From positions 1 to 64,000 of the IMG/VR virus record IMGVR_UViG_3300037502_002729: a stretch of 64,000 nt of DNA; one strand, given 5' to 3'. Under the pieces are notes generated by a model. That model was not told the origin of the DNA. It was given only the letters and a program-made list of their open reading frames with translations, and did not search any database. Source of the stretch: a virus. Shown here in pieces: positions 9,156 to 41,784 of this stretch. How positions within the stretch are numbered: position 1 is the first letter of the stretch; every line of letters starts with the position of its first letter. The position numbers and the translations under genes are program-made.

Positions 9156-9156
9156 G

Positions 9157-9230: not shown

Positions 9231-9237
9231 TTTTAAT

Positions 9238-20256: not shown

Positions 20257-20361
20257 TATTTATTTATTATTTTTAAAATCATTCCTCTTCTTTGGAATTT
20301 TATATATATCCGATTTTTTTCAAAGAGACCTAACAAAAAACTTGTTGGGTCTATTTTTTTT
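20257..20361 (+). ncRNA. candidate small RNA (own TATTTAT box and terminator)
   Basis: TATTTAT at 20257, no ORF, hairpin AGACCTAACAA/TTGTTGGGTCT plus T-run; complementary to the 40.27 and 41.65 kb elements. Confidence 0.45.
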
Positions 20362-20364
20362 AAC

Positions 20365-20372
20365 TATATTTG
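20365..20372 (+). promoter_or_regulatory. Bacteroidota -7 box TATATTTG
   Basis: TAnnTTTG 25 nt upstream of the 20398 ATG. Confidence 0.55.
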
Positions 20373-20397
20373 CAGTATAAACAAATAAATTAACACT

Positions 20398-20736
20398 ATG
20401 AGCAAACTTTTTGAATTTTTTATTAAACTTTTTAAGTTTATCCCTATATTATGGAATTATGCACATTGGGATTACACTTTTATATTAGCAAGTATGAAAG
20501 CATCAACTGAACTAATGTTAAAATCTTATATAGAGAATGAGGCATCTTTAAAAGATATCAAAGAATTAAGAAGATTTATCCAATTATTGGATAATCATTT
20601 GAAGGATGAATATTATCTTATTGATGATGTTAAAGAATCAGTAGCTTTAGAAGAAAAAGAATGGGATGAATTATGTGAGATATTTAAAGGAAACAAAGAA
20701 ATTGAAAAATATGGTGTAAAATCCTGGTGGACATAA
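20398..20736 (+). CDS. hypothetical protein
   Basis: 112-aa ORF. Confidence 0.6.
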   Translation: MSKLFEFFIKLFKFIPILWNYAHWDYTFILASMKASTELMLKSYIENEASLKDIKELRRFIQLLDNHLKDEYYLIDDVKESVALEEKEWDELCEIFKGNKEIEKYGVKSWWT

Positions 20737-20746
20737 AAACAAAAAA

Positions 20747-21412
20747 ATGAAAATAACATTTATTTCAGACACACATAACAAACACAAAGAATTAACAGAC
20801 AATAACTTATTGCCTAGTGGTGATGTCATTATTCATAGTGGAGATATTTCAGGTCGGGGTTATGAGCATGAAATAACTGATTTTTTAGATTGGTTTCAAG
20901 GTTTGAATTACACTCACAAAATATTTATTGCTGGTAATCATGATTTCTGGTTTGAGAAAAACTTTGATATTGAACAGAAATATAAAGATAAAGGTGTTGT
21001 TTATTTATTTGACCATTTTATGAATATTGATGGTTTGAATATATATGGATCACCTTGGCAACCAGCATTCTTTAACTGGGCTTTTAATTTACACACAAGC
21101 AAGGACTTAAAATATTATTGGGACAAAATACCTAATAATCTTGATGTTCTAATTACACATGGTCCTCCAAAATACATATTAGATGTTTTGCCAGTTGGGG
21201 TCAATGTTGGTTGTGAGGAATTAACAAAACGTGTTGAGGTTGTTAAACCAAAAATACATTGCTTTGGTCATATCCATTCTGGTTATGGTGAGAAATATGC
21301 TGATGGTGTCCAGTATTTCAATGCTGCTGTCTTGGGAGAGAATTATAAGTTAGCAAACAATCCAATTAACATAGAATACAATATAGAATCAAAGGAAATT
21401 ATCTTTATTTAA
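20747..21412 (+). CDS. metallophosphoesterase (MPPED/239FB-like)
   Basis: SDTH, HSGD, AGNHD, THGPP, FGHIH. Confidence 0.9.
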   Translation: MKITFISDTHNKHKELTDNNLLPSGDVIIHSGDISGRGYEHEITDFLDWFQGLNYTHKIFIAGNHDFWFEKNFDIEQKYKDKGVVYLFDHFMNIDGLNIYGSPWQPAFFNWAFNLHTSKDLKYYWDKIPNNLDVLITHGPPKYILDVLPVGVNVGCEELTKRVEVVKPKIHCFGHIHSGYGEKYADGVQYFNAAVLGENYKLANNPINIEYNIESKEIIFI

Positions 21413-21432
21413 GATGTAAATGCTTTTTATTG

Positions 21433-21464
21433 AAAAGTTTGGGATTTTGTGTCCCAAACTTTTT
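21433..21464. terminator. intrinsic terminator
   Basis: AAAAGTTTGGGA...TCCCAAACTTTT. Confidence 0.7.
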
Positions 21465-21506
21465 CTATTTACACTATTTAGCATATTTATAATAAAAGAA
21501 AAATAA

Positions 21507-21803
21507 ATGGATGAAAATACAATAGCAACTGTTTTAATTACAGCAATAACAGTTTTAGGTTCAGCAAGTGCTTGGAGGTTTTATGAAAAAAGAGAAGAAC
21601 GTAAAAGGAATGAGGATAATTTTATCCGTGAAGATTGTAGAGATAGAATTGCAAAATTAGAAGTTCTATTATTGAAAAGTTCAGAAGAAAAGGATCAAAT
21701 GAGAGATACAATCCTTAAATTAGTTGAGCAAGTTTCAGCTTTAACTGTTAAAGTACAGTTTTTAGAAGAAGAAAATAAAACATTAAAATCAAATCAACAT
21801 TAA
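21507..21803 (+). CDS. membrane-anchored coiled-coil protein
   Basis: N-terminal TM helix followed by a heptad-rich tail; TATTTATA at 21484. Confidence 0.6.
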   Translation: MDENTIATVLITAITVLGSASAWRFYEKREERKRNEDNFIREDCRDRIAKLEVLLLKSSEEKDQMRDTILKLVEQVSALTVKVQFLEEENKTLKSNQH

Positions 21804-21805
21804 TT

Positions 21806-22888
21806 ATGAAAATATTAGTAACAGAAAAACAATTAGCACATATTGTGAATGAATCTTTAGTTAAATCAACAAAGTCTTTTAAAGTTTTTGAATCCCTTGA
21901 ATTAAAAGAAGATATAACTCCTGATGAAATGATTGCTCGAATGACAAAACAAGTTGGTAATAAAATATCAGGAGTAGTTACTAGTCTTGGGAGATTAAGA
22001 ACTCTTGAATCAGAAGATATGAAAAGGGATATAAAAAGATTATTAGACTCATGTGAAAAATTTGAATATGAAGGGAGTATTTTTTATGTGTTTCAACAAA
22101 TTCCATCATTAAGACCAGAGAATGTAATATTCAAAGATAATAGAAGGGAAATTGCATTATATGTAAAACCAAATGTTAATAATCCTTATGAAGATAACAT
22201 TATCTACTATAACAAATTAGTTTTTAATAGATTGCCTTCAAAAGATAGGGGAGAAAATGCAGAATATGTCACAAAATATAATATTATAAATGTATTAATT
22301 GATGAAGATGTTATAACCAAAGAATCATTTACTGAAAATATTAGAAGATATTATAATGCTCATAAAAAAAATAGACAAAGTGCTGACCCATTATTTGAAT
22401 GGTTTGATAAGTTTATTCATGGAAAGGTGACTAGTGAAATACTACAAAAAACTGGGTTAAAAAATTTGAAGGATTTAGACATACATAGTATGAAGCCAGA
22501 CACTTTTAGTGATGAAGGTTTATCTGGGTTTGGTAAATTAAAAAGGAGTATAAGTAGAAAACTAACAGGTCTTGATGCTAAAGAATCTTATTATGTATCA
22601 AAGTTAGCAGACATATTTGATTTAGCTTTTAAGGATGAAAAACGTAGTCATATTTTTAATATATCAGATGAGGATGGTGAAGATTATATGTTATTCCAGT
22701 CAAAACCTTGTTCAGTTTTCTTGAAAAATAACCCTGTAATATATGATGATTCATTAGTGCCATATTTTGAAAATATTGGAACTAAATTTACTGATTTGGT
22801 TAAAAAAGCAGCAGATAAAACATCAAATAAAGAATTAAAAAATATGATTAGAAATTGTAATCCACAATATGGAATTTCACTTAAATAA
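21806..22888 (+). CDS. hypothetical protein with leader MKILVTEKQL
   Basis: 360-aa ORF. Confidence 0.65.
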   Translation: MKILVTEKQLAHIVNESLVKSTKSFKVFESLELKEDITPDEMIARMTKQVGNKISGVVTSLGRLRTLESEDMKRDIKRLLDSCEKFEYEGSIFYVFQQIPSLRPENVIFKDNRREIALYVKPNVNNPYEDNIIYYNKLVFNRLPSKDRGENAEYVTKYNIINVLIDEDVITKESFTENIRRYYNAHKKNRQSADPLFEWFDKFIHGKVTSEILQKTGLKNLKDLDIHSMKPDTFSDEGLSGFGKLKRSISRKLTGLDAKESYYVSKLADIFDLAFKDEKRSHIFNISDEDGEDYMLFQSKPCSVFLKNNPVIYDDSLVPYFENIGTKFTDLVKKAADKTSNKELKNMIRNCNPQYGISLK

Positions 22889-22923
22889 TTAGATATTTTT
22901 CATTATCTTTACAAAAAAAAAAG

Positions 22924-23118
22924 ATGAAAAAAGAAACCCCAACCAACACAGCAAAGAAATACACAAGAGTATTTGTTGATGAGAATTCAACAACAACCTG
23001 GTATTATGATGAATCAATAACAACTAGAGGACCAGTTGAGGTAGTCACAAAGTATAAGAAGTCTTATGAGGATGCCTTAAATAAAGAAGTTAGCAAAACA
23101 AAAAAGGTAAGAACTTAG
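22924..23118 (+). CDS. hypothetical protein
   Basis: 64-aa ORF after an A-rich leader. Confidence 0.55.
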   Translation: MKKETPTNTAKKYTRVFVDENSTTTWYYDESITTRGPVEVVTKYKKSYEDALNKEVSKTKKVRT

Positions 23119-23612
23119 TTCTTACCTTTGATAACACCTAAACAGTGTTTAATATATTCTCTACCTCTTGGTGATACACTTTCATCACCATAGATTTTTT
23201 CCAAATCTTTAACCAATTCCTCACCATGTTTATTCTCTTTATATAGTTCAATTATTTTATCCATAGCAGAAACACACTGATTACTTGTTTCATCAAAATA
23301 ATTATATGGTTTATATTGGTTAATTGTATTTGATACCTTATAACATAAGTCTTCTCCTTTGTCTGTTAAGTTTGGTCTAGTCCTCATTGTCTTTAATGTT
23401 TCAATCATATCAGTTAGTGCATTAATGCCAGACTTTCTAATTTTAATACCTTCAATATAATCATCTTGTTCATCATCACCAACAATTTCTTCTAAAGTCT
23501 TAATATTTTTCTTATGGCAGAAACGTCTATTTTCTTCTTTTGATTTTTCATTTAGATATAGATTTTGTATTCTAATCTTATCCTCATCTGTAATATTAAA
23601 TTTTATACTCAT
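23115..23612 (-). CDS. hypothetical protein with leader
   Basis: Start re-assigned to MSIKFNITDEDK; TATTTAT upstream. Confidence 0.6.
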   Translation of the reverse strand: MSIKFNITDEDKIRIQNLYLNEKSKEENRRFCHKKNIKTLEEIVGDDEQDDYIEGIKIRKSGINALTDMIETLKTMRTRPNLTDKGEDLCYKVSNTINQYKPYNYFDETSNQCVSAMDKIIELYKENKHGEELVKDLEKIYGDESVSPRGREYIKHCLGVIKGKN

Positions 23613-23697
23613 TGTGTTATTTTTATTTATTACAATAAATATATATTTTTTCAAAAAAAATAAATAAAATTACTATTTATGTAAAAAATATAGACAT

Positions 23698-24747
23698 ATG
23701 AACTTAAATTTTTCATCAAAAGACATTGCTCTAGCAAAGAAAATCAATTTTGATTTGATTGCAAAACACTTTAAAGCATTAGAAGAAGGTAATGAGGTAA
23801 TTATTGATTTACCCCCAGCCCAAATACAGGCTTTATCAACAGAATCATCCTTAAATAATCAACCAAGTTGGGGTTGGGTGTTCTTGCAAAGTAATATATT
23901 GGATAACAAGATAATAATGGGGGAGAAATTTCAGCGTAAAGTTCTTTATTGTGTTATTGATACTATGGCATATCCAACTCATACTGCATTAATATCAGAT
24001 AACCAATTTGTAGATAAGAAATATTGCAAAGATTTCACAACTGATAGTAGCCAAGATGATGGTCACGGTCATGGTCATCATGTTGCTGGTATTATATTAG
24101 GAAAACATCCCCAATATAAGCTAGGTGTTGGATATGTTAATGGTAAAAATCATGGTGATTTAATTATGGCTCAAAAGGGTTTAAACAAAAATGGTGGGGG
24201 ATCAACAGAAAGTTTGGTAAATGCAATCAATCATGCAATGAATGTGTGGAAAGATAATTTTAAGGATTATTTGTTGGTGTTTAATTTCTCTTGGGGTGCA
24301 ACAACAGAAAACAAGGAAATAACAAAAACAATAAATGATGCAGTAAAAAATGGAGCATTTATTAATGCTGCTGCTGGAAATAATGGTACTGGAGCATTGT
24401 CATTTCCAGGGGCATTATCAAATGTAATTTCTTGGGGTGCTCATGATATTAGAGGCAATAAGGCATCTTTTTCACAATATGGAAATACATTAGTTGGTAT
24501 TGCACCAGGAGTTCAAATTTGGTCTTGCTTTAAAGATAATGGATCTTATGTTAGTTGGGATGGAACATCTATGGCAACACCACATGGTAGTGCTGCTATT
24601 GGCTTATTGTTAAAATATAAACCAGAAATTAAAAATCAAAATGACTTAAAAGAATATCTAACAAAAAACCTCACAGATGGTGGTAATCCTGGTCGTGATG
24701 ATTGGTATGGTTGGGGTTATCCAAAGTTTAGTAGTTTATTCAAATAA
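23698..24747 (+). CDS. subtilisin-like S8 serine protease
   Basis: VIDT, HGHHVAG, AAGN, GTSMATPH catalytic motifs. Confidence 0.92.
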   Translation: MNLNFSSKDIALAKKINFDLIAKHFKALEEGNEVIIDLPPAQIQALSTESSLNNQPSWGWVFLQSNILDNKIIMGEKFQRKVLYCVIDTMAYPTHTALISDNQFVDKKYCKDFTTDSSQDDGHGHGHHVAGIILGKHPQYKLGVGYVNGKNHGDLIMAQKGLNKNGGGSTESLVNAINHAMNVWKDNFKDYLLVFNFSWGATTENKEITKTINDAVKNGAFINAAAGNNGTGALSFPGALSNVISWGAHDIRGNKASFSQYGNTLVGIAPGVQIWSCFKDNGSYVSWDGTSMATPHGSAAIGLLLKYKPEIKNQNDLKEYLTKNLTDGGNPGRDDWYGWGYPKFSSLFK

Positions 24748-24782
24748 CTTTACAATCTAATTATTTTATTTATTATTTTTTT

Positions 24783-25601
24783 ATGGAAAAGATTATAATA
24801 ACTGGAACAAAAGGATTTATTGGGGGAAATTTGTTGGATAGATTAAAAGGCAAATTTGATATTTTAGAAATAAATGAAGACATATTTGATTATAAAGATT
24901 GGATTGGTGAATTAAATTCAATTTTGTTGGATTTCAACCCAAGTACAATATTTCATATTGGAGCATGTTCAAATACTCTTGAGAGTGATGTTAATTATAT
25001 GATGAAAGTGAATTATGAGTTCACAAAAATATTATCAGACTATTGTTTTGATAATGATGTAAAATTAATATACTCATCATCTGCTGCAAATTATGGTATA
25101 AATGGTTTGTACCCATCTAATCTATATGGTTGGAGTAAATATATTGCTGAAAATTATGTTATAAAGAATAATGGATTAGCACTAAGATATTTTAATGTTT
25201 ATGGGTTTGGTGAACAAAATAAAGGCAATATGGCCTCAGTTGCTTATCAGATGTATTTAAAAAAGTTGAAAAATGAAGAAATAAAATTGTTTCCATTAAA
25301 ACCAAAAAGAGATTTTGTATATATTGATGATGTGATTGATGCAAATATTTTTGCAAATGATAATTATAAAACATTATGTGGATTTTATTATGAAGTTAGT
25401 AGTGGAGAATCAAGATTATTTGAAGATATTATGAATATTTTTGGTTTAAGTTATTCATATGCAAACAAAGAACTAATACCAAAAGGATACCAATTTTTAA
25501 CTCAAAGCAATAAAGAAAAATGGATGCCAAATTGGCATCCAAAATATAATTTAGAAAAAGGATTAAAAAAGTATTTTTCAGAACTTAATCAGTTTTTTTA
25601 G
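24783..25601 (+). CDS. NAD-dependent sugar epimerase (HldD/RfaD-like)
   Basis: TGTKGFIG, YSSSAANYG, YGWSK, LRYFNVYG, RDFVYIDD. Confidence 0.85.
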   Translation: MEKIIITGTKGFIGGNLLDRLKGKFDILEINEDIFDYKDWIGELNSILLDFNPSTIFHIGACSNTLESDVNYMMKVNYEFTKILSDYCFDNDVKLIYSSSAANYGINGLYPSNLYGWSKYIAENYVIKNNGLALRYFNVYGFGEQNKGNMASVAYQMYLKKLKNEEIKLFPLKPKRDFVYIDDVIDANIFANDNYKTLCGFYYEVSSGESRLFEDIMNIFGLSYSYANKELIPKGYQFLTQSNKEKWMPNWHPKYNLEKGLKKYFSELNQFF

Positions 25602-26127
25602 ATTTAATAAATTCTTTGAATGTAATCCAACCCCAATCAAAATATCTTTCATTTACATATTGTGGTTGATACATAAATGGGCAATCTTTCCCAGATATAT
25701 CATAATGACGATGAACATCTTCAATTGTTAGATTGTGTTTTTCAAATAAATGATGTAATAATTCTTTTACATTATTGATGGTTTTTCCCCAATCATTATC
25801 TATATTTACACACATTTCAATCCCAATGAAATAATCATTTGGACTTCCACCTTGGGGTACTAATGCTTTTCTAATGGGTAGATTGCTTTTTCTTTCCCTA
25901 TCACCAACATGGTAGGCAACTTCATCATCCGGAATTAAATAAATAATTTCTTTATCATCAACAACATAATGAGTACAACCTATTTTCCAATTATTTTTAA
26001 AATAATTCAAATGAGCAGAGGCTCCTGCCCCAGATCGTGTATTTGCTGTCCAATGGACTATAATTCCCTTTAATTTCTTTAATTTTTTATTAGGTCTTTC
26101 AGTAATAAATTTTTCATTAATTGTCAT
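25585..26127 (-). CDS. N-acetylmuramoyl-L-alanine amidase (Amidase_2)
   Basis: IVHWTA, HYVVD, AYHVG, IGIEMC, RHYDISGKDCP. Confidence 0.9.
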   Translation of the reverse strand: MTINEKFITERPNKKLKKLKGIIVHWTANTRSGAGASAHLNYFKNNWKIGCTHYVVDDKEIIYLIPDDEVAYHVGDRERKSNLPIRKALVPQGGSPNDYFIGIEMCVNIDNDWGKTINNVKELLHHLFEKHNLTIEDVHRHYDISGKDCPFMYQPQYVNERYFDWGWITFKEFIKSKKTD

Positions 26128-26223
26128 TTTTTTAAAATTTATTATAAATATTCCTAAAATTAATTTTGATTATTATTTTTTTTTTAATATCTTTGATATT
26201 TATAATTAAAAACTAAAAAAAAT

Positions 26224-26973
26224 ATGGCAAAGACTATAAGACTAACAGAACATGACTTATCTATAATCATCAAGAGGGTTATTAGAGAGCAAAATGAAGC
26301 AACAATTTCAAACTATAGAAAGATATTTGTTGATTCTGGTAAATTATCAGAAGAAATATTTGATGAGATTGTTGAAGTTTCCAAAGGCAAAGGTGCTTAT
26401 GTAAAATGGTTGGCAGCAAGAGTTGCTGAAAAGAAAATTAAGGATGAGGATATCTACAAATTTGAAGAATATTTGGATTCTTTTGAAAAAGCAAAAAGAA
26501 GTCCAAGAGGAAAAGCAATGTTTCCTATCATAGATATCAATCAAGTAAAATCATCTTCTGATGTTAGAGCATTTATTGATGCTGCCATCCAGTTTGAAGA
26601 AGTTGGTTCTGTTGAAGGAGAAGAGGAAGAAATGGATTCAGACTCAGTTTTGGTATCAAAATCAGATATTTTGAAATTAAAAGATGTTGGTATTAATTTA
26701 ATTGGTTTAGTTGCTGGTTATCAAATATTCAAAGTATCCAATATGGATAAGCAAACTTGGGAAGTGTATAGAACTATCTTGGGTAAATGTAAGGAGGGTG
26801 CTTCAATACATATATGTACAATTGCAGGATATTCACACTTTAAGAACTACTTGGAAAAACATCCAGGTTCTTCATACTATGTGATATTCAACCAAAATGA
26901 CCCATTATCACCATACCAGTTTCACTATGAATCAAACCAATTCAAGGATAGAAAAGACGCAGATGTATTTTAA
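26224..26973 (+). CDS. hypothetical protein with leader and CT-motif domain
   Basis: MAKTIRLTEHDL leader; HICT...YQFHYESNQFKD resembles part of 30415..32340. Confidence 0.6.
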   Translation: MAKTIRLTEHDLSIIIKRVIREQNEATISNYRKIFVDSGKLSEEIFDEIVEVSKGKGAYVKWLAARVAEKKIKDEDIYKFEEYLDSFEKAKRSPRGKAMFPIIDINQVKSSSDVRAFIDAAIQFEEVGSVEGEEEEMDSDSVLVSKSDILKLKDVGINLIGLVAGYQIFKVSNMDKQTWEVYRTILGKCKEGASIHICTIAGYSHFKNYLEKHPGSSYYVIFNQNDPLSPYQFHYESNQFKDRKDADVF

Positions 26974-26990
26974 GTAAAATTAAAATATAT

Positions 26991-27028
26991 AAAAAAGGGA
27001 ATCATACATTATGGTTCCCTTTTTTTTA
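26991..27028. terminator. bidirectional terminator
   Basis: AAAAAAGGGAATCATA...TATGGTTCCCTTTTTT. Confidence 0.65.
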
Positions 27029-27284
27029 TTAACATATCAAAGCCCCTCATACTCAACCATTTTCCAATAATGCTACCTGCAATATAAACAGGGATTACAA
27101 AGTAATTATGGTTAAATAGGTTATCTAATGAATAATAAGCAACACATAAAGAAGTTAAATTAATCCAAATAGAATTAACTAATAACTCTTTTAATTTATC
27201 TTCATATGTGTATTTTATCTCAAATGTCTTAAATATGTTAAAAACAATCTGGAATATAAAAATTAAAATATAATCAATAATCAT
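27009..27284 (-). CDS. small multi-pass membrane protein
   Basis: Three hydrophobic segments. Confidence 0.65.
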   Translation of the reverse strand: MIIDYILIFIFQIVFNIFKTFEIKYTYEDKLKELLVNSIWINLTSLCVAYYSLDNLFNHNYFVIPVYIAGSIIGKWLSMRGFDMLIKKREP

Positions 27285-28021
27285 TATTTGGATATTCTAA
27301 ATCCAGCCCCAATTGAAAAATCAGGGTTTATAGGATCCATATCAAACTTAACAACAAATTTTTTAAAGTCAAACAATCCCCCAACTTTAATTCCGACAAA
27401 ACTCCTTCCAAATTTTGGAAATGAATATGATTTGCTTCCATTCAAAATAGCCAAATCATCAATAAACTGATAATTCACAACCCTGCTTCCAATACCTACT
27501 GAAACAAATGGGGATATAAAGCCTATACGTTGACCATAACCAACATAAATCCTATAACCCTTCTCTATATCCTTTAAACGTTCATCATTCCACTGGATAG
27601 CATTCTGGATGTTTATATTGGAATAAAATTCACTATTATCTAGGTTTGGCCTAAACATCAAATCTCCAACCAAGAATTTGTCTTCACCTACTGTAAAAAA
27701 TAAACCAATTAATCTTACACTTTTGCTTAACCCAATTGTCCCTCTAAATGGTCTTGGGACTAATGTTGTAGGATTATAGTAATATGGGTTACTGTAATGC
27801 ATATTACGATAATACATAACCCTAGGATTAAACAATCCATAACCTTGGTCAAATATTGGTTCAATATCTCTAACAATTACAGTATTAGTTTTTGGAGCAT
27901 ATTTTTCTGTTCTTAATTTCTGTTTTTCTTCACTTTCTTTATTTAGTGTCATTTGTTTGTTCTCAATGTTTTGAGAAAGGCCAATAATAGGCATTAGTAG
28001 TAAGAAAATTAATTTATTCAT
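27284..28021 (-). CDS. putative outer-membrane beta-barrel protein
   Basis: Signal peptide; alternating beta-strand pattern; C-terminus FSIGAGFRI. Confidence 0.6.
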   Translation of the reverse strand: MNKLIFLLLMPIIGLSQNIENKQMTLNKESEEKQKLRTEKYAPKTNTVIVRDIEPIFDQGYGLFNPRVMYYRNMHYSNPYYYNPTTLVPRPFRGTIGLSKSVRLIGLFFTVGEDKFLVGDLMFRPNLDNSEFYSNINIQNAIQWNDERLKDIEKGYRIYVGYGQRIGFISPFVSVGIGSRVVNYQFIDDLAILNGSKSYSFPKFGRSFVGIKVGGLFDFKKFVVKFDMDPINPDFSIGAGFRISK

Positions 28022-28127
28022 AATATTAGGTTTATTTATAAATATTGATTTTTTTTGGAATATATCAATATATTTGTTATTAATTGTATAATTATATCAT
28101 TTTTGGATATTTATAAAATAAAACAAA

Positions 28128-28835: not shown

Positions 28836-28847
28836 AAAATTTATAAA

Positions 28848-30401: not shown

Positions 30402-30414
30402 ATTTTAAAAAGAT

Positions 30415-32340: not shown

Positions 32341-32342
32341 AT

Positions 32343-32378
32343 AAAAAACCCCCTACTTTATTATGGTAGGGGGTTTTT
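32343..32378. terminator. bidirectional terminator
   Basis: AAAAAACCCCCTAC...GTAGGGGGTTTTT. Confidence 0.75.
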
Positions 32379-32384
32379 AGATTG

Positions 32385-32597: not shown

Positions 32598-32667
32598 TTT
32601 GTTTTGTTTTTAAATGTTTATGTGACGTATTTGTCTTAGTTTAAATATATGCAATATAGAAATAAAA

Positions 32668-33764: not shown

Positions 33765-33839
33765 TTGTGTTATGTTTTGTGGAGTACAAATATACAAAAA
33801 AAAATACAATAATGCTATATTTATAGAAAAAATAAAATT

Positions 33840-34424
33840 ATGAAAAATACTTTTAGATTAACAGAATCAGATTTGGTTAGACTTGTGAAAAGGGTTACTA
33901 ATGAAAACAGAATATTAGAACAAAAATCAGGTAAATCATATAATATATATTTAGCTGGACCTAATGTTTTTAAAAAAGATGCCATTGAGGATTTAAATAA
34001 AATGAAAGAAATTTCAAAAAAATATAATCAGATTGGTAATGCACCCATTGATAATGAAGTTGACTTCACTAAAGTTGGTGCAGCAACTAGAATATTCCAT
34101 GGAAATATTGAGATGATGGATATGTGTGATGTTATTATTGCAAATCTTGAGCCATTTAGAGGTCCAAATGTTGATGATGGCACAGCTTTTGAATTAGGTT
34201 ATGGTTATTCAAAAAATAAAATTATGTATGGGTATATGACTCATTCAGATAGGGAATTAAAAGATATTACTGCTGATTTATATGGAGATGATGAAAAATT
34301 TCCACATGTTGAGAATTTTAAATATCCAAGAAACTTGATGATTGTTGATTCTATTCGTTCTTCAGGTGGCAACATATTCAAAACATTTGAAGAGTGTGTT
34401 AAACACTTGGTTGAAAACCATTAA
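33840..34424 (+). CDS. nucleoside 2-deoxyribosyltransferase family protein with N-terminal leader
   Basis: IYLAGP, CDVIIANL, DDGTAFELGY; extra MKNTFRLTESDL...ILEQ extension. Confidence 0.85.
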   Translation: MKNTFRLTESDLVRLVKRVTNENRILEQKSGKSYNIYLAGPNVFKKDAIEDLNKMKEISKKYNQIGNAPIDNEVDFTKVGAATRIFHGNIEMMDMCDVIIANLEPFRGPNVDDGTAFELGYGYSKNKIMYGYMTHSDRELKDITADLYGDDEKFPHVENFKYPRNLMIVDSIRSSGGNIFKTFEECVKHLVENH

Positions 34425-34439
34425 TTTTTTTGTAAAAAA

Positions 34440-34904
34440 CTACATAAACCAATAAGGGATATCTCTATTTTTCCAGGTAGCAAACCTTTTTTTGTCACCA
34501 ATATAATAGTTCCTATATGATTGGACATAATCATCTACTTTATATTGTTCTGGCATTGCAAGTGCAGGTTTAGTAAAACCAATATCTTTAATTTCTGGAA
34601 GATTATCTAAGCACCAATGAATCACATCTGTTGATTTATGGTGCTTTTTGTATCTATATGTGTATTCTTTTGATAGTTCAAGACCTAATTCACATAATAC
34701 TAAATAATTTGTTAATGAAGTTCTACACCAGATGGAACATGGGTGGTTCTTATGAGCCAATTTATATGGAACATCAACTACATCACACATATGATGAACA
34801 GAACATAACAATTGTGCAGTTTCCAATATCATCTTAACAACATGTTTATCACAATGATATTGGGCATTTAGTTGTGGATTTTCATCCAGAAAGAAAATGT
34901 TCAT
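34440..34904 (-). CDS. pyrimidine dimer DNA glycosylase/DenV-like family protein
   Basis: MNIFFLD, HCDKHVVKMILETAQLL, HKNHPC, AMP, YRNYY; TATCTTTG box at 34918-34925. Confidence 0.75.
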   Translation of the reverse strand: MNIFFLDENPQLNAQYHCDKHVVKMILETAQLLCSVHHMCDVVDVPYKLAHKNHPCSIWCRTSLTNYLVLCELGLELSKEYTYRYKKHHKSTDVIHWCLDNLPEIKDIGFTKPALAMPEQYKVDDYVQSYRNYYIGDKKRFATWKNRDIPYWFM

Positions 34905-34971
34905 ATGTTTTTTTTTGCAAAGATACTAAAATTTTATAAACTACATAATATTTATAATAAAACTTAAAATT

Positions 34972-35520
34972 ATGAATTCTTATTTTTTTAAAATAACAGA
35001 TCAAGAGCAAAAAGACATTTTAGCAAAACATAGGGAACTATATAATGGATATCTTTCTATGCAGCCAAAAGTTAATCCACAAAGGATTTCAATGTATGAT
35101 GATATTTCTGATAAGCAAGGATTTACTTTAAAAAATTCTGATTTAATTAGAGAAGGTAAAACTGGCATGTGTTCTGAATGTGGTGGTAGAATGTATGAAG
35201 GTGAATGCTCTGAATGTGGCTCAATGAATGAAGGTTGGAATACAGAAGACATTGACAATGAAAATAAAATGGATTTTATTGAAATGGATGAAATGTATGA
35301 TGATATGGATGAAACTATCTATGAATTTGAGTATGATGAATATGACGAAATGAGTCCAATGGTTGAAGCATTTGTTAGAGAATCTAAAAAATTAATTTTA
35401 TCTGAATCAAGAAAAAAGAAATCTAAAAAAATTATTAATGAAAATTATATAAAAAATAATCCTATTAATGACAAATTAACTGAAATCAAAAACTTTATGC
35501 ATAGGATTGCAAAATATTAA
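34972..35520 (+). CDS. hypothetical protein with Zn-ribbon
   Basis: CSECGGRMYEGECSECG; acidic stretch. Confidence 0.6.
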   Translation: MNSYFFKITDQEQKDILAKHRELYNGYLSMQPKVNPQRISMYDDISDKQGFTLKNSDLIREGKTGMCSECGGRMYEGECSECGSMNEGWNTEDIDNENKMDFIEMDEMYDDMDETIYEFEYDEYDEMSPMVEAFVRESKKLILSESRKKKSKKIINENYIKNNPINDKLTEIKNFMHRIAKY

Positions 35521-35523
35521 AAA

Positions 35524-35826
35524 ATGGAAATTAAAGAACTTACAGCATTTTTTGTTGATAAAGAAACAAATATACTTGATGTTACATTTAGATTAATTGA
35601 TGATTCTGATGATACTATTAGACAGGATCAAATTGATTATGATTTGGCAGAAGAGTATGGGTATTCAATAATTCCAAATCAATTATCAATTCCAGATGAT
35701 GAGTTACCTGATTCTGAAATTGATGAATTTGAGGATATTGATGTTGATAAATTAGAATTAATAAATTTCTTAACTGAATATTACACAGTTAATCCAAATT
35801 TATTACCAAAACCACAAAATTATTAA
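35524..35826 (+). CDS. acidic hypothetical protein
   Basis: 100-aa ORF in operon. Confidence 0.6.
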   Translation: MEIKELTAFFVDKETNILDVTFRLIDDSDDTIRQDQIDYDLAEEYGYSIIPNQLSIPDDELPDSEIDEFEDIDVDKLELINFLTEYYTVNPNLLPKPQNY

Positions 35827-35828
35827 TT

Positions 35829-36053
35829 ATGAAATTTAAAAAACAATTTGGAGAACAAGAAGAAGCACCAGCATCAAATGGTGGAACACCAGCATCAAAA
35901 TGGGAATCAGGAGCAACAAGAGGCAAAGCCAATCCTATTGATAGCAAATCAAAATGGGAATCAGGAGCAACAAGAGGCAAAGCCAATCCTATTGATAGCA
36001 AATCAAAATGGGAATCAGGAGCAACAAGAGGAAAAGCCAATCCTTTAAATTAA
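35829..36053 (+). CDS. small protein built of SKWESGATRGKANP repeats
   Basis: Three repeats in a 74-aa ORF. Confidence 0.65.
   Translation: MKFKKQFGEQEEAPASNGGTPASKWESGATRGKANPIDSKSKWESGATRGKANPIDSKSKWESGATRGKANPLN
35894..36044. repeat. 54-bp tandem repeat, ~2.8 copies
   Basis: Units begin at 35894, 35948 and 36002. Confidence 0.9.
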
Positions 36054-36061
36054 ATAATAAA

Positions 36062-37060
36062 ATGAAACAATTCATAATAACTGAGCAAGAGAAGTATAAT
36101 ATCTTAAAACAATATGGATTGTTTGAACAAAACAAAACATACCCATATAGAAGGCCTGGTGAACAATATTATACACCACCAACTGGACCATTTGCACCTC
36201 CACCAACAAAAGATGAATGGAAGTTAAGTGGAATGCCAACAAAAGAAGACTGGGAAGATTGGTTAATTACAATGTATGAGCCAAGAATAAAAATTCCAGT
36301 TCCTATTTTGGGTGAAATAAAAATGAGTGTAATGGATATTGCTTCAATTTTTGCAAACCTTATACCTTATATTGGTCCATATGTTTCAATAGCATTAGAT
36401 GCTAGTAGTGCTGCTTACTTTACAAGTAAAGGGAATAATTATGAGGCTGGGTTAAGAGCATTATTTATGATAATACCAGGAGTACAACTTCCAATAGTTC
36501 AAAAATTTGGGAAAGAAAAATTAATAAAACTTTTAGCAAAAGTAGAAAATTTAAAGGGAGATGTTAATTTAGCATCAAATTTATCAAAAGAAGAAATGAG
36601 AGATATTGTTTATATATTTAGATATTTTAGACAAAATAAAGAATCAATTAAATTAATATTATCAAAAAGTGCAAAAATAATTGTATCTCTTGGACGTCTT
36701 TCTAAAATAATGTCAGGAATGACAATTGCTCAGTTTATGAGCGCAATGCATAGATTGTACAAAATAAACCCAAAACATCATTTATTTACTAAAGGTAGTA
36801 AAGTTTTATTAAATATATTTACACAATTTGGAATACCTTTTGGGTTATACAAAGGTTGGGATTATTTTTGGAATAAATATGCTTCTGAATATGAAAAACT
36901 TAAAAAGAATAACTATGATAAAGTTGGAAAAAAAACTAGTAATGAGATTATTTTAGATATAATGGAAGCTGGTGAGGATTTTTATTTAAAAGAAGAAACA
37001 ATGGAACAATTTTTTAACTCAATATATGAGTCTAAAGAAGACCAAAAAAACTTTAAATAA
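36062..37060 (+). CDS. hypothetical protein with leader and pre-toxin-TG-like hairpin
   Basis: Start re-assigned to MKQFIITEQEK; DIASIFANLIPYIG...AAYF...EAGL...IPG. Confidence 0.6.
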   Translation: MKQFIITEQEKYNILKQYGLFEQNKTYPYRRPGEQYYTPPTGPFAPPPTKDEWKLSGMPTKEDWEDWLITMYEPRIKIPVPILGEIKMSVMDIASIFANLIPYIGPYVSIALDASSAAYFTSKGNNYEAGLRALFMIIPGVQLPIVQKFGKEKLIKLLAKVENLKGDVNLASNLSKEEMRDIVYIFRYFRQNKESIKLILSKSAKIIVSLGRLSKIMSGMTIAQFMSAMHRLYKINPKHHLFTKGSKVLLNIFTQFGIPFGLYKGWDYFWNKYASEYEKLKKNNYDKVGKKTSNEIILDIMEAGEDFYLKEETMEQFFNSIYESKEDQKNFK

Positions 37061-39555
37061 TGGAAAAAAATATTTTATTAGAAATAAATAGAAATTTAGA
37101 ATTAATGGGAGGTAAACAATTGTTAACAGAAGCTAAATATCCAACCTTTAATCCAAAGATATCAGATAACATTATTGATAATTTAAAATCATTTGAGGGG
37201 TATATTACTAAACAAAATTTAAGGTATAAATTACCACAAATAAATGATTTAATTAAAAAATTAGATGACAACTATCCAAAATCGCTTGAAATAGCAAGTG
37301 AGTTCATAAATAATCCAATTTTTACTTATGGTGAAAAAATATCATTTTTTTCTAATTTATTTAAAATTAATTATAATAATTTAAATCAAATAGTTGAAGC
37401 TTATACTAATATAAGAGGTACTATACAGGATAGAGAATTATTTTTGAATTCTTATGTAAAATCCTTTCCTGAATCAGATGTTGGAAATTTTTTTAAAAAA
37501 ATAATTCCATTATTGTCTAAAACAAATAAAAATCACAATAGAAATATAATTAAATTTTATGAAAAATTTTATGATTTTGTTAAAAATAAAAATATAAACA
37601 TAGATTTAGGACAGTTAAATCAAAAAATAGATGCTATTTTTAGTAATCCTAATATAGCACAAAATGTCAAATTTAATTTGTTACTAAAATTAACAGGTTT
37701 AAATAAAGAAAAAATATATGAATTTTATGGTAAATTACTAAATTTATATAACAAAAGCGAAATAAATACACGAGTTAAAACTAATATAAATCATTTCTTA
37801 GAAACAGGTGATGAATTAAGTAGAACTAGATTACAAGATGTAAAAGAAATAAAAAAATTATTTGAAGAAATTAATATTAATGATGGTGCAAGTATGTCTG
37901 CTATATTAGCCTATTTGCCTTTTTTTTATAAAAAAGGTGCATTTGGTGGTAGGATAGGTGCATTAAAGGGTACAGGTGCAAAGGTATTAGGTGAAAAAGC
38001 TCTAATACTTTTTGCAAGATTATTTCCAATACATATTAAACATTTGTATGATGCTTTATCTATTTTTTTTATTTCTCAAAAAAGAAGTAAGGCAGCAATA
38101 GAAGGTAAACTAATTAGTATTATTAATGATTGGGGAACAGCACTTAATTCTATTGAAATTTATAATGATAGTATTAAAAAAGGTATTTTTCCAGCTAAAC
38201 CACCAAACTTCAATGAAATTAAGTTTAAATATGAAAAACAAATAAAAAATTTATTGGGTGGGTACATTCTTATAACAAATAAAACATTAGCTCAAACTTT
38301 AATCCCAGAATTAAAAAAAATAATAGATGTTATAAATACAAATAAACAATTTAAATATGATAAATTAGATTTAATACAAATTTTAAATGAACAAGTTAAG
38401 GAGTTGACTGAAGCAAGTACTGATGCTAAAGTTCCAATAAAATTTATTGAATTTTTAGATACTTTAGATTCAATCCAAATTGATCCTAACATTAGACCAG
38501 CCAGTAAAAAAGAGAAAATTTTTGATTTGATGTTTTCAACATATCATATGCCTATTGATGTTAATAATTTGAAAAAAACTTTAACAGAACGTATAAAAAA
38601 TATAGTAAGTGCTGATAACCTCAAAAAAATACTCACAAATGGTTTAAAGACAGTTATCTATGGAGCACCAATTAATCCTATATTGATAAGAAGATGTTTT
38701 AAAATTTATAAAGATGAGATAATAAAAAATAAAGGTAGAAAGGGATTTCCAAAACTTTTTTACCAAGTTAAAATTATATTACATGCTTATTTGACATATG
38801 TGTTTGTCTCAATAATTATTAGGTTTTTATATGGTATTTTTATTACATTAGCTAATGCAATTACTTTATATCCTAGATGGCTTTTTGACCAACAATATAA
38901 TTTAGAAAGTAGTGATAATTCTAAATGGCAAGGGTTAGTGAATAATAATTATGAGAAAGCAATTATAGAAGCAAAAAATAATAATGAATCATTTATTAAA
39001 ACATTTCTTTTTTATGAACTTAAAAAAAATATATTACCAATATTAGAAAATACTATTAATTCAACAGCAGATAAAGATTTTACAAATGTTCTAAAAAGTT
39101 TTGGATCAGAATGGTATAAATTACTTATACCACCTGAATTATTAAATTTTGAAACAGGTATTATGTCTAAAGTATGGAAAATTGCTATTGGGTATATAAC
39201 AAAAGAAGATTATAGTAGTTTTATTGCTGCAATAAATGATGTTTTATATCGCATAAAAGAAGATTTGCTTAAAAGTCTTAGAAATATAAATTTAAATCAA
39301 ACAAACACAACATCTACTACAAACCAAACCATTTATAAAACATATAATTATGATTCTATGTATAATAAAACCTTTGTTCCTTATTTTACATATGAAAATA
39401 TAAAGTCAATTAAATTAAATAATATTGATATTAGTAGAAACGTAATAAAAAATCAAAGAGGAGGTATTATAATAAAAGATGTTCAAAGAAATGATGTTGA
39501 AAATATTGTAATAACAAGCAAATATAATAATAACATATATAAACTAAAAAATTAA
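37060..39555 (+). CDS. large helical hypothetical protein with TM segment
   Basis: 831 aa; leader MEKNILLEINRNLELM...LLTEA. Confidence 0.65.
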   Translation: MEKNILLEINRNLELMGGKQLLTEAKYPTFNPKISDNIIDNLKSFEGYITKQNLRYKLPQINDLIKKLDDNYPKSLEIASEFINNPIFTYGEKISFFSNLFKINYNNLNQIVEAYTNIRGTIQDRELFLNSYVKSFPESDVGNFFKKIIPLLSKTNKNHNRNIIKFYEKFYDFVKNKNINIDLGQLNQKIDAIFSNPNIAQNVKFNLLLKLTGLNKEKIYEFYGKLLNLYNKSEINTRVKTNINHFLETGDELSRTRLQDVKEIKKLFEEININDGASMSAILAYLPFFYKKGAFGGRIGALKGTGAKVLGEKALILFARLFPIHIKHLYDALSIFFISQKRSKAAIEGKLISIINDWGTALNSIEIYNDSIKKGIFPAKPPNFNEIKFKYEKQIKNLLGGYILITNKTLAQTLIPELKKIIDVINTNKQFKYDKLDLIQILNEQVKELTEASTDAKVPIKFIEFLDTLDSIQIDPNIRPASKKEKIFDLMFSTYHMPIDVNNLKKTLTERIKNIVSADNLKKILTNGLKTVIYGAPINPILIRRCFKIYKDEIIKNKGRKGFPKLFYQVKIILHAYLTYVFVSIIIRFLYGIFITLANAITLYPRWLFDQQYNLESSDNSKWQGLVNNNYEKAIIEAKNNNESFIKTFLFYELKKNILPILENTINSTADKDFTNVLKSFGSEWYKLLIPPELLNFETGIMSKVWKIAIGYITKEDYSSFIAAINDVLYRIKEDLLKSLRNINLNQTNTTSTTNQTIYKTYNYDSMYNKTFVPYFTYENIKSIKLNNIDISRNVIKNQRGGIIIKDVQRNDVENIVITSKYNNNIYKLKN

Positions 39556-39559
39556 TAAT

Positions 39560-40243
39560 ATGAATTATATTGAAAAACATTTAAATTTATCAAAAAATTT
39601 AAATAAATTATTAAATGAAGAAATATGTAAAAATGGAAAAAATAATTTAAACAATTTGCTAAATAATGGTTTTTTTTTAAAAAAAAATATACTAACTGAA
39701 GCAGCAATTGAACCAGTAGAAGGTTTATTAATTAAATATAGAAATTTTTATTACAAAAATATTGCAAAAAAAATTTATAATGAAAAAATAAGTTATACTG
39801 GTTTTAGTGATGTTAAAATTTATAACCATTCTAATATTTTACAAAATCCAAATTATTATTTTATATTAACTTTTAAAACAGGTGATACTGGGACTTATTC
39901 TGCTGATACTAAAGTGATGTTATATAATTTACCAAAACAAAGATTTTTTTATTATGAATATGATAATAGTTCTGTTGCAAAATGGAAAAAACCAATTATA
40001 GGATATACACCTTTAGGAAGGGGAACAGAACTTGATTTTTATGAAGATTCAATTGATGCTTTAGTTCTTTCTGCAACAACAAAAGAAGTGAATTTTGGTG
40101 TAGAAAAATTTAAAATGGATCGTTTATCACCTTCACCTGATTGGTCAAAATCATTCCCAGCAAGTAAAATATTTGAAGATTTTGATGAATATTCAGAAGA
40201 TTTGTTAAGAGCTAAAAACCAAGTAATTAAAAAAATAACATAA
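39560..40243 (+). CDS. hypothetical protein
   Basis: 227-aa ORF; LLNEE and ILTEA motifs. Confidence 0.6.
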   Translation: MNYIEKHLNLSKNLNKLLNEEICKNGKNNLNNLLNNGFFLKKNILTEAAIEPVEGLLIKYRNFYYKNIAKKIYNEKISYTGFSDVKIYNHSNILQNPNYYFILTFKTGDTGTYSADTKVMLYNLPKQRFFYYEYDNSSVAKWKKPIIGYTPLGRGTELDFYEDSIDALVLSATTKEVNFGVEKFKMDRLSPSPDWSKSFPASKIFEDFDEYSEDLLRAKNQVIKKIT

Positions 40244-40248
40244 ATCTT

Positions 40249-40347
40249 ACAGATAGCATCTGTTGATTATAAATCGGATTTTTTAAAAAGAGGAGGTGTT
40301 CAAAATTTGGAAAAGGTTGGTGATAAGCCAACCTTTTCTTTTTTTTT
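40249..40347 (+). other. structured 3' element with orphan extended Shine-Dalgarno, followed by a terminator
   Basis: Hairpin ACAGAT-AGC-ATCTGT, AAATCGGAT, AGGAGGTGTTC (40291-40301), terminator AAAAGGTTGG...CCAACCTTTT. Confidence 0.5.
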
Positions 40348-41014
40348 AACCCTTCTTTGACATAATAACTTTATCAATTATTCCATAAGCCAAAGATTCA
40401 TTTGCATCTAGCCATAAATCCCTACTAGCATCAGTTTTAACAACTTCTGGATCTTTTCCACAATATTGACCTAGCAAGGTGAACAAAATATCATTTGTTT
40501 TTTGCCATTCTTTCATTGTGATTTCAGCATCTTGAATATTCCCAACAGCACCCCCAGAACTCTGGTGTAACATTGTTTTGGAAAACCGCAAGGAACTTCT
40601 CTTTCCTTTTGTTCCAGCACCAAGCAATATTGAACCCATTGATGCAGCCATTCCTGTGTTCACTGTGGCCACATCACACTTAATGTAGTCCATAACATCA
40701 ACAATTGATAAACCTGCCTTCACAGAGCCACCAGGGCTATCTATATGCAATGTTACATCAGATGAATCAGATGAATCCAAGAACATAAGTTGAGCCTGGA
40801 TTATGGTGGACATTCTATCTTCAACTGGACCTGCCACCCATATTAACCTATCTCTCATCAATCTTGAGAAGATATCAATTTGTGTTGCCCTCATTTCCCT
40901 TTCTTCAAGGATATAAGGTGTCATAGATGCAGATACATTTTTTTCAAAATAATCCAAATGGGATGATGGTTTTCCCAAGTGATCCACATAATAAGATTTA
41001 AATTCATTCTTCAT
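40346..41014 (-). CDS. clpP: ATP-dependent Clp protease proteolytic subunit
   Basis: DIFSRL, IDSPGG, GMAASMG, MLHQ, RDLW. Confidence 0.96.
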   Translation of the reverse strand: MKNEFKSYYVDHLGKPSSHLDYFEKNVSASMTPYILEEREMRATQIDIFSRLMRDRLIWVAGPVEDRMSTIIQAQLMFLDSSDSSDVTLHIDSPGGSVKAGLSIVDVMDYIKCDVATVNTGMAASMGSILLGAGTKGKRSSLRFSKTMLHQSSGGAVGNIQDAEITMKEWQKTNDILFTLLGQYCGKDPEVVKTDASRDLWLDANESLAYGIIDKVIMSKKG

Positions 41015-41048
41015 ATTATCCTTTTTTCAAAATATAATAAAAAATAAA

Positions 41049-41537
41049 TTAATAAGCAAATGATGATTTATAATCTTCCCATATTTTTATAATGGATGAA
41101 TCATTTGATAGAAATGATGGTGTTCTTGGTGTAAACCTTAAAGGCATTTTGGCTTCATCTGGTGTTTTATCCCCCTTCTTTAGGTTACAAGGTAAACAGC
41201 AAGTTATTAAATTATTCCAAGAATTTTTACCCCCTCTTGATTTTGGAATTATATGGTCAATTGTTAATTCTTTTTTTGACCCGCAATAAGCACATTCATT
41301 ATTATCTCTTTTATATATACGTTGTCTATTAACTCTTAAATTCTTCATCTTATGTGAGATATATTTAAGAAGCCGGATTATCAATGGTTTTTCATAATGA
41401 GTTGTTTCTGTTCTTATAACTTCAAAACCATTCTTTATAATTTCAGCTTTTCCCTTAATCACCAATATAATAGCTCTTTTTAGTGTTGTAATATTAAGTG
41501 GTGTATAATCTGAATTTAGAACAAGTATTGTTTCCAT
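41049..41537 (-). CDS. HNH endonuclease
   Basis: LVLNSDY, RDNNECAYCG, TIDHIIPKSRGG, CLPCNLKKG. Confidence 0.9.
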   Translation of the reverse strand: METILVLNSDYTPLNITTLKRAIILVIKGKAEIIKNGFEVIRTETTHYEKPLIIRLLKYISHKMKNLRVNRQRIYKRDNNECAYCGSKKELTIDHIIPKSRGGKNSWNNLITCCLPCNLKKGDKTPDEAKMPLRFTPRTPSFLSNDSSIIKIWEDYKSSFAY

Positions 41538-41565
41538 ATTTTTTTATTAAAAATATAATAAAATA

Positions 41566-41601
41566 AAAAAAGGGTTGCAAGTATTTTGGCAACCCTTTTT
41601 T
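41566..41601. terminator. intrinsic terminator
   Basis: AAAAAAGGGTTGC...GCAACCCTTTTTT. Confidence 0.75.
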
Positions 41602-41603
41602 AA

Positions 41604-41687
41604 TTATAAGTTTATGGCTTGAAGCCGTGTTTGCAATTTCAACATCCGATTTTCTCCAAAAAGACATAACATGTTTGATATTTTCAT
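41604..41687 (-). other. stand-alone small transcript: 27-aa ORF or sRNA
   Basis: MKISNMLCLFGENRMLKLQTRLQAINL between TATTTAT (41708-41714) and the terminator. Confidence 0.45.
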
Positions 41688-41784
41688 ATTATATATTGTT
41701 ATATTTAATAAATATTTGTTTATAAAAAAGTGTGTATTAATTTGGATATAAAAAAAATATAATTATATTTATACTAAAAAAAAT

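Follow-up and report, generated by a model that had tools for sequence, protein, structure and literature searches.

A candidate small RNA of an uncultured giant phage, predicted to pair in trans with the mRNA of a small basic peptide encoded 21 kb away

The phage DNA analysed here (the window, 64,000 nucleotides) probably encodes a small RNA (sRNA) that acts in trans, by base-pairing, on the mRNA of a small basic peptide, within the coding region at +23 to +44. That two separately transcribed RNAs pair in trans over ~22 nt is supported by compensatory changes among related genomes, by sequence differences between the two sites that give nothing but G-U pairs in the predicted orientation, by the top rank of this target in both genome-wide scans, and by the conserved boxes and terminators of the two units. 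Pairing over 22 nt between RNAs from 20.3 kb and 41.6 kb had been proposed in an earlier note on this DNA, and these lines of evidence bear it out.

Read along one DNA strand, the two 22-mers form a direct repeat, identical at 19 of 22 positions (Table 1). Their three differences (T/C, T/C and G/A) become G-U pairs only if a plus-strand RNA from 20.3 kb is set against a minus-strand RNA from 41.6 kb. The dinucleotide CG is rare in the window, with 137 occurrences observed and 1266 expected. The sequences, positions and strands of the 22-mers, their complementarity with all three differences as G-U in this orientation, and the rarity of CG had been pointed out in the earlier note and were reproduced when rechecked and recomputed on the window. 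The match in one genome is nevertheless only marginal evidence, because same-strand 19/22 pairs are frequent, numbering 542 in the window, if unconditioned, and 75-119 in Markov shuffles, and those anchored on CG are expected at 0.17 per shuffled window; its significance comes from the relatives. A third TCCGATTT, at 40271-40278 on the minus strand, has a common stretch of just 8-9 nt and was taken as a chance occurrence.

Covariation was analysed in five sequence-distinct genomes, related to one another, that carry both loci. The two sites co-vary at positions 5, 10, 12 and 14, while positions 5, 13 and 18 move through G-C, G-U and A-U, and all seven variable positions retain pairing via Watson-Crick or G-U states. 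The cognate pairs comprise 98 Watson-Crick pairs, 10 G-U pairs and two failures among 110 positions. Their arrangement is the best among 120 permutations; two of the 120 score equally, differing by a swap of two identical seeds. Of the six distinct differences within genomes, five are transitions whose polarity allows G-U pairs solely between plus-strand RNA at 20.3 kb and minus-strand RNA at 41.6 kb. Position 10, the most variable column in the entire sRNA, occurs in the seed/target states T/T, C/C and A/A; these matched natural variants are ready-made specificity mutants, and natural covariation already supplies the evidence expected of compensatory mutation. Among the irregularities, position 14 is a C-A mismatch in the pair of c3757 (loci L046/L044), and the pair of G005 contains a 1-nt bulge. 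Some of the concerted change could stem from gene conversion between these short repeats, above all in c3757, the target of which appears to have been copied from the seed. A new seed variant with A at position 18 was found in the metagenome contig Ga0304730_1000283, which lies outside the five-genome set. What comparison of the genomes shows is a complementarity preserved by selection through many substitutions. A search for compensatory changes in related phages had been suggested as a check on the pairing, with a lack of conservation or covariation expected to speak against it; the comparison instead found co-varying sites within conserved units.

Table 1. Predicted features of the two units, with positions in the window.
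Feature	Position	Strand	Basis or remark
TATTTAT promoter-like box, sRNA unit	20257-20263	+	same in 14/14 distinct sRNA-locus variants
Predicted non-coding sRNA, ~87 nt	20272-20358	+	5′ end inferred from box, 3′ end from terminator
sRNA 5′ hairpin, 5-bp stem	20281-20298	+	RNAalifold consensus structure, weak support
Seed, 22 nt, single-stranded, complementary to small-ORF mRNA	20308-20329	+	match, co-folding
Intrinsic terminator, sRNA unit: 11-bp stem, 5-nt loop, T-run	20326-20361	+	terminator scan (20326-20352 with a T-run), 0 in shuffles
TATTTAT promoter-like box, small-ORF unit	41708-41714	-	27 nt before ATG; kept in 6/6 locus variants
27-codon ORF, small basic peptide	41604-41687	-	frame open in 6/6 variants (26-27 codons)
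Target site in mRNA, codons 8-15	41644-41665	-	+23 to +44 from A of ATG
Intrinsic terminator, small-ORF unit: GC-rich hairpin, then seven U	41560-41595	-	fold; hairpin 41595-41572

Each 22-mer lies in a short unit of its own, bounded by a TATTTAT box and a terminator, and the two units face in opposite directions. This layout, with a 27-aa ORF on the minus strand at 41.6 kb and no ORF at 20.3 kb, agrees with the description in the earlier note, and the boxes, both terminators and the ORF were located. Both units exceed their neighbours in conservation. They are separated by 21.3 kb here and by 17.7-21.5 kb in relatives.

The predicted sRNA contains no ATG, and its 20.3-kb unit contains no plus-strand ORF. 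It folds more stably than shuffled sequences (z = -4.2), and across relatives the unit is 83-94% identical, compared with 64-85% for the flanking coding DNA. The spacer immediately upstream of the invariant box diverges among the 14 variants. In the 5′ hairpin of the G005 variant one pair is altered on both sides, from U-A to C-G, and the terminator stem is kept across variants with one G-U change. A covariance model found a single copy per genome in the window and in a 270-kb relative, the next matches having E-values of at least 1.2. The gene upstream encodes a metallopeptidase, and the upstream genes are of lysis type. The sRNA sequence would also occur as the 3′ UTR of this metallopeptidase gene, and a separate primary transcript therefore stays a prediction.

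The ORF at 41.6 kb has suffered no indels in six variants, and the other two frames contain stops. The peptide variants carry a net charge of +2 to +8, and their best 17-residue Kyte-Doolittle windows score between -0.11 and 1.26, with no membrane-spanning hydrophobic stretch; a search of PHROG families gave no match to the peptide. With its 27 codons, the gene offers a concrete case of a phage micro-protein that may be functional. Its terminator works on the minus strand, because the U-run of a minus-strand transcript (an A-run on the plus strand) is invariant while the T-run on the plus side decays in G001 and G005. Such asymmetry of the terminators fixes the strands of the units. The consensus terminator scan, which had a loop limit of 8, missed this hairpin, the loop of which is probably longer.

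TATTTAT is the main upstream box of the phage and, judging from the motif, a putative promoter element. Among 7-mers upstream of ORFs it shows the strongest enrichment (~10-fold), being present in 30 of 55 such regions on the phage's own contig and, in the relative G004, in 60 of 151; its median position is -24 from the ATG. Since both units bear the same class of box, the boxes reveal no temporal logic.

Duplex prediction, also suggested beforehand as a check, put the small-ORF mRNA first among targets in both genome-wide scans. On the phage's own contig (107 kb) the site in this mRNA forms the seed's best non-self duplex at -34.3 kcal/mol, the next best reaching -23.4, against a background of -8.6 (sd 3.1), so that the target stands at a z-score of about -8. 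The homologous site is likewise the best non-self duplex in G004 (270 kb; -33.4 vs -28.0, z about -7). When full-length RNAs were co-folded, the duplex formed in five of five pairs and both terminators were kept in every pair; the energy gained was -13.7 to -24.2 kcal/mol.

From these features a course of action can be proposed. Transcription from the TATTTAT box to the intrinsic terminator would yield a phage sRNA of ~87 nt (20.27-20.36 kb, plus strand), in which a single-stranded seed lies between a small 5′ hairpin and the hairpin of the terminator. Codons 8-15 of the minus-strand mRNA from 41.6 kb would be bound by this seed in a duplex of ~20-24 bp. Because +23 to +44 lies outside the ribosome initiation footprint, this duplex would most likely be cleaved as double-stranded RNA (RNase III type) or block elongation, and by either route less of the small basic peptide would be made. 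Decay of both RNAs would be coupled, and control would accordingly be stoichiometric. Pairing this deep within a coding region is not at a classic site of translational repression. As the centre of the seed varies freely, the comparison suggests that the small-ORF mRNA is the main or only essential partner of the sRNA.

The roles of the two RNAs may also be reversed or mutual, an alternative that we consider unlikely. The 41.6-kb transcript would then serve mainly to sponge or regulate the 20.3-kb RNA, its peptide being incidental; for instance, sequestration of the seed and of the foot of the terminator stem could cause readthrough from the upstream lysis-type genes into the downstream genes. 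The base of the terminator stem is indeed made up of the seed's final 4 nt, and in several genomes the complementarity can reach a few pairs into its 5′ arm. Moreover, not even synonymous sites vary within the ORF's first 10 codons, which suggests that the RNA itself is under constraint. However, the terminator stays intact upon co-folding, the extension into the stem is unconserved in c3757 and G005, the gene downstream of the sRNA has its own conserved TAnnTTTG box, and the ORF has remained open without indels in its six variants. Extended pairing that involves both the terminator arm and the start-codon region was considered separately; it is present in some genomes and unconserved.

Less probable still is a role of the 22-mer as a DNA site with no RNA-RNA function, whether as the operator pair of a co-evolving protein or as repeats homogenised by recombination or gene conversion. 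The copies are indeed direct repeats on one strand, 49 and 51 nt from their boxes, and sets of operators would likewise match within a genome and differ between genomes. The 22-mer is, however, non-palindromic; it follows each box by ~50 nt, points the opposite way with respect to transcription in the two units, and has just two copies in a 270-kb genome. A 1-nt difference in length is tolerated in G005, and the G-U polarity of five of the six differences is predicted by neither a protein site nor gene conversion. Dyad symmetry, promoter overlap and a common orientation to the promoters, as expected of a protein operator pair, were not found. Finally, it is very hard to credit that the resemblance is coincidental, each element being conserved for its own reason, one as the 3′ UTR and terminator of the upstream gene and the other as a small gene: frequent as 19/22 matches are in this AT-rich window, with even CG-anchored ones expected at 0.17 per shuffle, chance does not account for parallel changes to the same base at four positions of both loci across lineages, for a cognate arrangement that tops all permutations, or for a site that is the top match in two genome-wide scans.

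Base-pairing in trans, the preferred reading, concerns an element of narrow distribution. The phage is an uncultured freshwater giant phage, apparently virulent, with a host of Bacteroidota type, a group with little-explored sRNA biology; to our knowledge, Bacteroidota lack Hfq. The sRNA element is confined to one clade, because it is absent from two contigs of more distant relatives, L084 and L085, which encode a homologue of the downstream gene with 28-30% identity. Even among genomes that still carry the sRNA, the downstream protein is just 52-53% identical. Searching the virus collection by a hairpin pattern and, independently, by a pattern for the start of the ORF returned the same contigs, a sign of saturation. 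BLAST of the 20.3-kb region against GenBank phage records gave no match. In Rfam, only tRNA and tmRNA were found at the gathering threshold, and matches at the E-value threshold scored far under the cut-off (OrzO-P, 21.6 bits vs 60).

The co-varying, hypervariable centre of the duplex (positions 10-14) invites a further idea, which we put forward as a speculation with the odds well against it: it may be a specificity code among closely related giant phages that share a lake and carry different matched versions of seed and target, by analogy with plasmid antisense-RNA incompatibility groups and the heteroimmunity of P1 and P7. In P1 and P7, matched changes in the c4 RNA and its target confer separate specificity. 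If the idea were true, the RNA of each phage would control the small gene of its own kind only, and would represent an RNA-based device for self/non-self recognition or superinfection immunity in a virulent phage.

Among known systems, the label of a type I toxin-antitoxin-like pair given in the earlier note is not supported. A predicted and co-varying pairing of one RNA with the mRNA of a small protein is present, as between antitoxin RNA and toxin mRNA. The peptide, though, is basic and not a small hydrophobic membrane protein by charge and Kyte-Doolittle profile, and the genes are neither overlapping nor adjacent, lying 18-21 kb apart (21.3 kb in the window). Type I pairs with non-overlapping sRNA antitoxins, namely zorO-orzO, tisB-istR-1 and shoB-ohsC, are among the nearest in design (PMC3919570). 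In zorO-orzO the complementarity is 18 nt and repression requires cleavage of the duplex by RNase III, and in pairs of this type a variable region decides which sRNA recognises which mRNA (PMC3919570). The phage pair resembles them in the short complementarity between a small RNA and the mRNA of a protein of ~30 residues. In contrast to their adjacent divergent genes, hydrophobic membrane toxins and pairing in the 5′ UTR, it has distant genes, a basic non-hydrophobic peptide and pairing inside the ORF.

The c4 antisense RNA of P1/P7 (immI: c4-icd-ant; Citron and Schuster, 1990, as cited in PMC8198154) is likewise a phage RNA acting in trans on a phage mRNA, and its target mRNA begins with a small ORF. 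In P1/P7, c4 is processed from the operon of its own target, blocks the icd ribosome site and acts in the lysogenic immunity of a temperate phage, whereas the present pair consists of far-apart separate units with a coding-region site in a phage of virulent, giant make-up. The Rfam family C4 gave no match at gathering or E-value thresholds, and the target at +23 to +44 belongs to a separate unit.

The architecture matches that of generic trans-encoded base-pairing sRNAs. Like these, the 20.3-kb RNA has its own promoter (on the evidence of the motif) and a Rho-independent terminator without an ORF, a small 5′ hairpin, an accessible, unstructured seed, and imperfect, G-U-containing pairing with a distant target that has been kept in evolution. 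It differs from them in a duplex of 20-24 bp, compared with the usual seed of 7-12 nt, and in being dedicated to a single phage target instead of a host regulon. The phage-encoded sRNAs characterised so far almost all act on host mRNAs or are cis-antisense (reviewed in PMC12197685); a dedicated trans pair between distant phage loci, if true, would represent a layer of self-regulation that annotation pipelines miss.

The source contig, a 107-kb IMG/VR virus contig whose first 64 kb form the window, is estimated to be 35% complete; genes in the window include those for terminase, portal protein, ClpP, a Lon-like protease, tmRNA and two tRNAs. The window has a G+C content of 28% and is strongly depleted in CG (137 observed vs 1266 expected, ratio 0.11). 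Many of the remaining CGs lie in clusters within the tRNA and tmRNA genes. The two 22-mers, at 20308-20329 and 41644-41665, have the sequences given in the earlier note and are identical at 19 of 22 positions. As described there, each belongs to its own unit with a TATTTAT box and a terminator hairpin, and the two units lie on opposite strands.

Features of the two units and of the RNA genes in the window
Feature	Position	Strand	Context
sRNA-unit gap, 165 nt			between reprolysin-like gene (stop 20232) and 112-aa gene (start 20398)
TATTTAT box of sRNA unit	20257-20263		upstream of first 22-mer
sRNA terminator hairpin, 11-bp, with T-run			adjoins first 22-mer
Small-ORF unit			between HNH endonuclease gene (minus, start 41537) and thioredoxin gene (plus, start 41785)
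27-codon ORF	41687-41604	minus	holds second 22-mer
TATTTAT box of small-ORF unit			27 nt before ATG of 27-codon ORF
GC-rich hairpin, then seven U		minus	3′ of 27-codon ORF
tmRNA (86.5 bits, long tag peptide), tRNA-Pro, tRNA-Met	47834-48255, 9156-9312	minus	

The window has 542 same-strand pairs of 22-mers that agree at 19 or more positions, against 75-119 in first-order Markov shuffles. Since shuffled windows give 0.17 pairs sharing an aligned CG, against three in the real window (two of them local tandem repeats in genes), the single-genome match is, taken alone, marginal, at roughly P = 0.15. In the orientation that promoters and terminators predict, all three differences can form G-U pairs, as the earlier note had proposed, which adds a modest factor. 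A third TCCGATTT (minus strand, 40271-40278) occurs in a structured convergent intergenic element at 40249-40347 that also contains a hairpin and a terminator; with 8-9 nt in common with the seed and a covariance-model E of 1.5, it was rejected as a related site and is probably a chance occurrence.

The clade was located by pattern and protein searches of IMG/VR, and both loci were then found inside matching records. They are present, 17.7-21.5 kb apart, in five sequence-distinct genomes: the window's own contig (G000); G003/G004 with a third contig of the same sequence; G005; the c1216 group, named after contig 3300042479_001216 (loci L057/L029); and c3757, named after contig 3300042890_003757 (loci L046/L044). 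Besides 3300042479_001216, the c1216 group has both loci on 3300042863_002721 and on no other contig; 3300042506_000543 has a further copy of its sRNA locus and 3300044991_001618 a further copy of its mRNA locus. Two further variants have one locus only on their contig. The addition of twelve metagenome contigs brought the distinct sRNA-locus sequences to 14; the Ga0209191 metagenome holds two different seed variants (L091, L092), and a further one with A at position 18 (L089) lies on the 44.8-kb contig Ga0304730_1000283.

The compensatory changes that the earlier note had looked to relatives for were found: across the five genomes, seed and target take matched states at variable positions.

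States observed at variable columns of the 22-mer (20.3-kb base/41.6-kb base)
Position	States
5	G/G, G/A, A/A
10	T/T, C/C, A/A
11	T/C, T/T
12	T/T, T/C, C/C
13	T/C, T/T, C/C
14	C/C, T/T, once C/T
18	G/A, A/A, G/G

With the 20.3-kb locus read as plus-strand RNA and the 41.6-kb locus as minus-strand RNA, all states pair as Watson-Crick or G-U with two exceptions, a C-A in c3757 at position 14 and, in G005, a bulge of one base in a U-run. The cognate pairs of the five genomes total 98 Watson-Crick pairs, 10 G-U pairs and 2 failures in 110, and among all 120 possible seed-target assignments the true one alone reaches these values, apart from a trivial twin that swaps two identical seeds. Were the RNAs taken from the opposite strands, these differences would become A-C mismatches; the polarity giving G-U is seen in 5 of 6 distinct within-genome differences, for which we estimate a probability of ~0.001-0.005 under a random-substitution null. 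Terminator asymmetry points to these strands as well: at 20.3 kb a T-run follows the stem on the plus strand only, and at 41.6 kb the run giving minus-strand U is invariant and the plus-side T-run decays in two relatives (G001 and G005). A DNA operator, or gene conversion between the sites, is a further possible reading of the matching sequences and is ranked lower as an explanation. Occasional gene conversion is hinted at because the c3757 target (L044) looks like a patch copied from the sRNA locus, matching the seed at 21/22 positions including 11, 13 and 18, which differ in other genomes.

The putative sRNA is predicted to fold into a 5′ hairpin with a stem of 5 bp, which carries one double change (in G005), followed by an unpaired seed and then by the terminator hairpin; among the 14 distinct locus sequences, the whole sRNA varies most at seed position 10. 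Between the window and relatives, identity is 83-94% over the sRNA unit (flanking coding DNA, 64-85%) and 83-93% over the 41.6-kb unit (intergenic DNA beyond, 62-72%); the protein encoded downstream of the sRNA is only 52-53% identical in genomes keeping the sRNA. The seed region was slid with RNAduplex over both strands of the window's own 107-kb contig and of G004, a 270-kb, 90%-complete relative. The duplex prediction suggested in the earlier note bore it out in both scans: the 41.6-kb minus site is the best non-self duplex on the own contig (-34.3 kcal/mol; next -23.4; background -8.6, sd 3.1), and the homologous site is again first in G004 (-33.4 kcal/mol; next -28.0; background -9.7, sd 3.4). 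On full-length co-folding, the duplex forms with both terminators still folded in all five cognate pairs, with a gain over the monomers of -13.7 to -24.2 kcal/mol; trans-antitermination at 20.35 kb is ranked below pairing of the sRNA with the small-ORF mRNA.

A frame of 26-27 codons is kept without indels in 6/6 variants, the other two frames carrying stops, and we read the small ORF as a real micro-protein gene. Its first ten codons are almost invariant, synonymous sites included, and the most variable codons are 11-12, at the duplex centre; RNA-level constraint in the 5′ half is evident. By their C-terminal half the variants form two families. With a charge of +2 to +8 the peptide is basic, and a PHROG search returned no match to it.

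In both the own contig and G004, the 7-mer most enriched in front of ORFs, about 10-fold, is TATTTAT, which occurs in 30/55 and 60/151 upstream regions, respectively, with a median position of -24 relative to the ATG; the terminase, thioredoxin and Lon-like genes are among those behind it. The box is unchanged at both units across relatives, and neighbouring spacers diverge. A second class, which includes the gene directly 3′ of the sRNA, matches the Bacteroidota TAnnTTTG box; the two classes are probably phage-specific and host-sigma promoters. In the window and the whole contig, about half of the transcription units have TATTTAT (for example 59735, 41785 and 53380) and another set TAnnTTTG(CA) (11486, 20398, 33764, 34904 and 48398). 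The upstream regions of ClpP (41014-41060) and the HNH endonuclease (41537-41575), on the minus strand, have TTATTATATTTT in common, which falls in neither main class; it may mark promoters of a third type; alternatively, HNH may rely for its expression on transcription reading through the small-ORF terminator. A role of the 41.6-kb unit as a leader for the HNH-ClpP genes is likewise ranked lower.

For the preferred reading, a trans-encoded sRNA pairing with the small-ORF mRNA, the target site lies at +23 to +44 relative to the start codon. Because this is outside the initiation footprint, the predicted duplex would most likely act through cleavage or decay, or by blocking elongation, and not by direct occlusion of the ribosome site. 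In the zorO-orzO system, repression by an 18-nt duplex requires RNase III (PMC3919570). Either of the two RNAs may be the regulator, and the putative sRNA may be transcribed on its own or may double as 3′ UTR of the gene before it.

The phage pair, as proposed, works like type I antitoxin-mRNA pairs and like the c4 RNA of P1/P7, yet lacks defining features of each family. Of the earlier note's type I toxin-antitoxin-like label, the putative RNA-mRNA mode of pairing stands and two defining features of the family do not, as the genes lie far apart and a search of six peptide variants found no hydrophobic stretch of membrane-helix grade. An Rfam search returned no relative of the sRNA. Cases covered in a 2025 review of phage sRNAs are mostly host-directed or cis-antisense (PMC12197685). 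The pair described here is distinguished by an apparently single, dedicated target within a coding region, by three-state covariation at one position (T/T, C/C, A/A) and by different matched variants occurring side by side in a single metagenome (Ga0209191).
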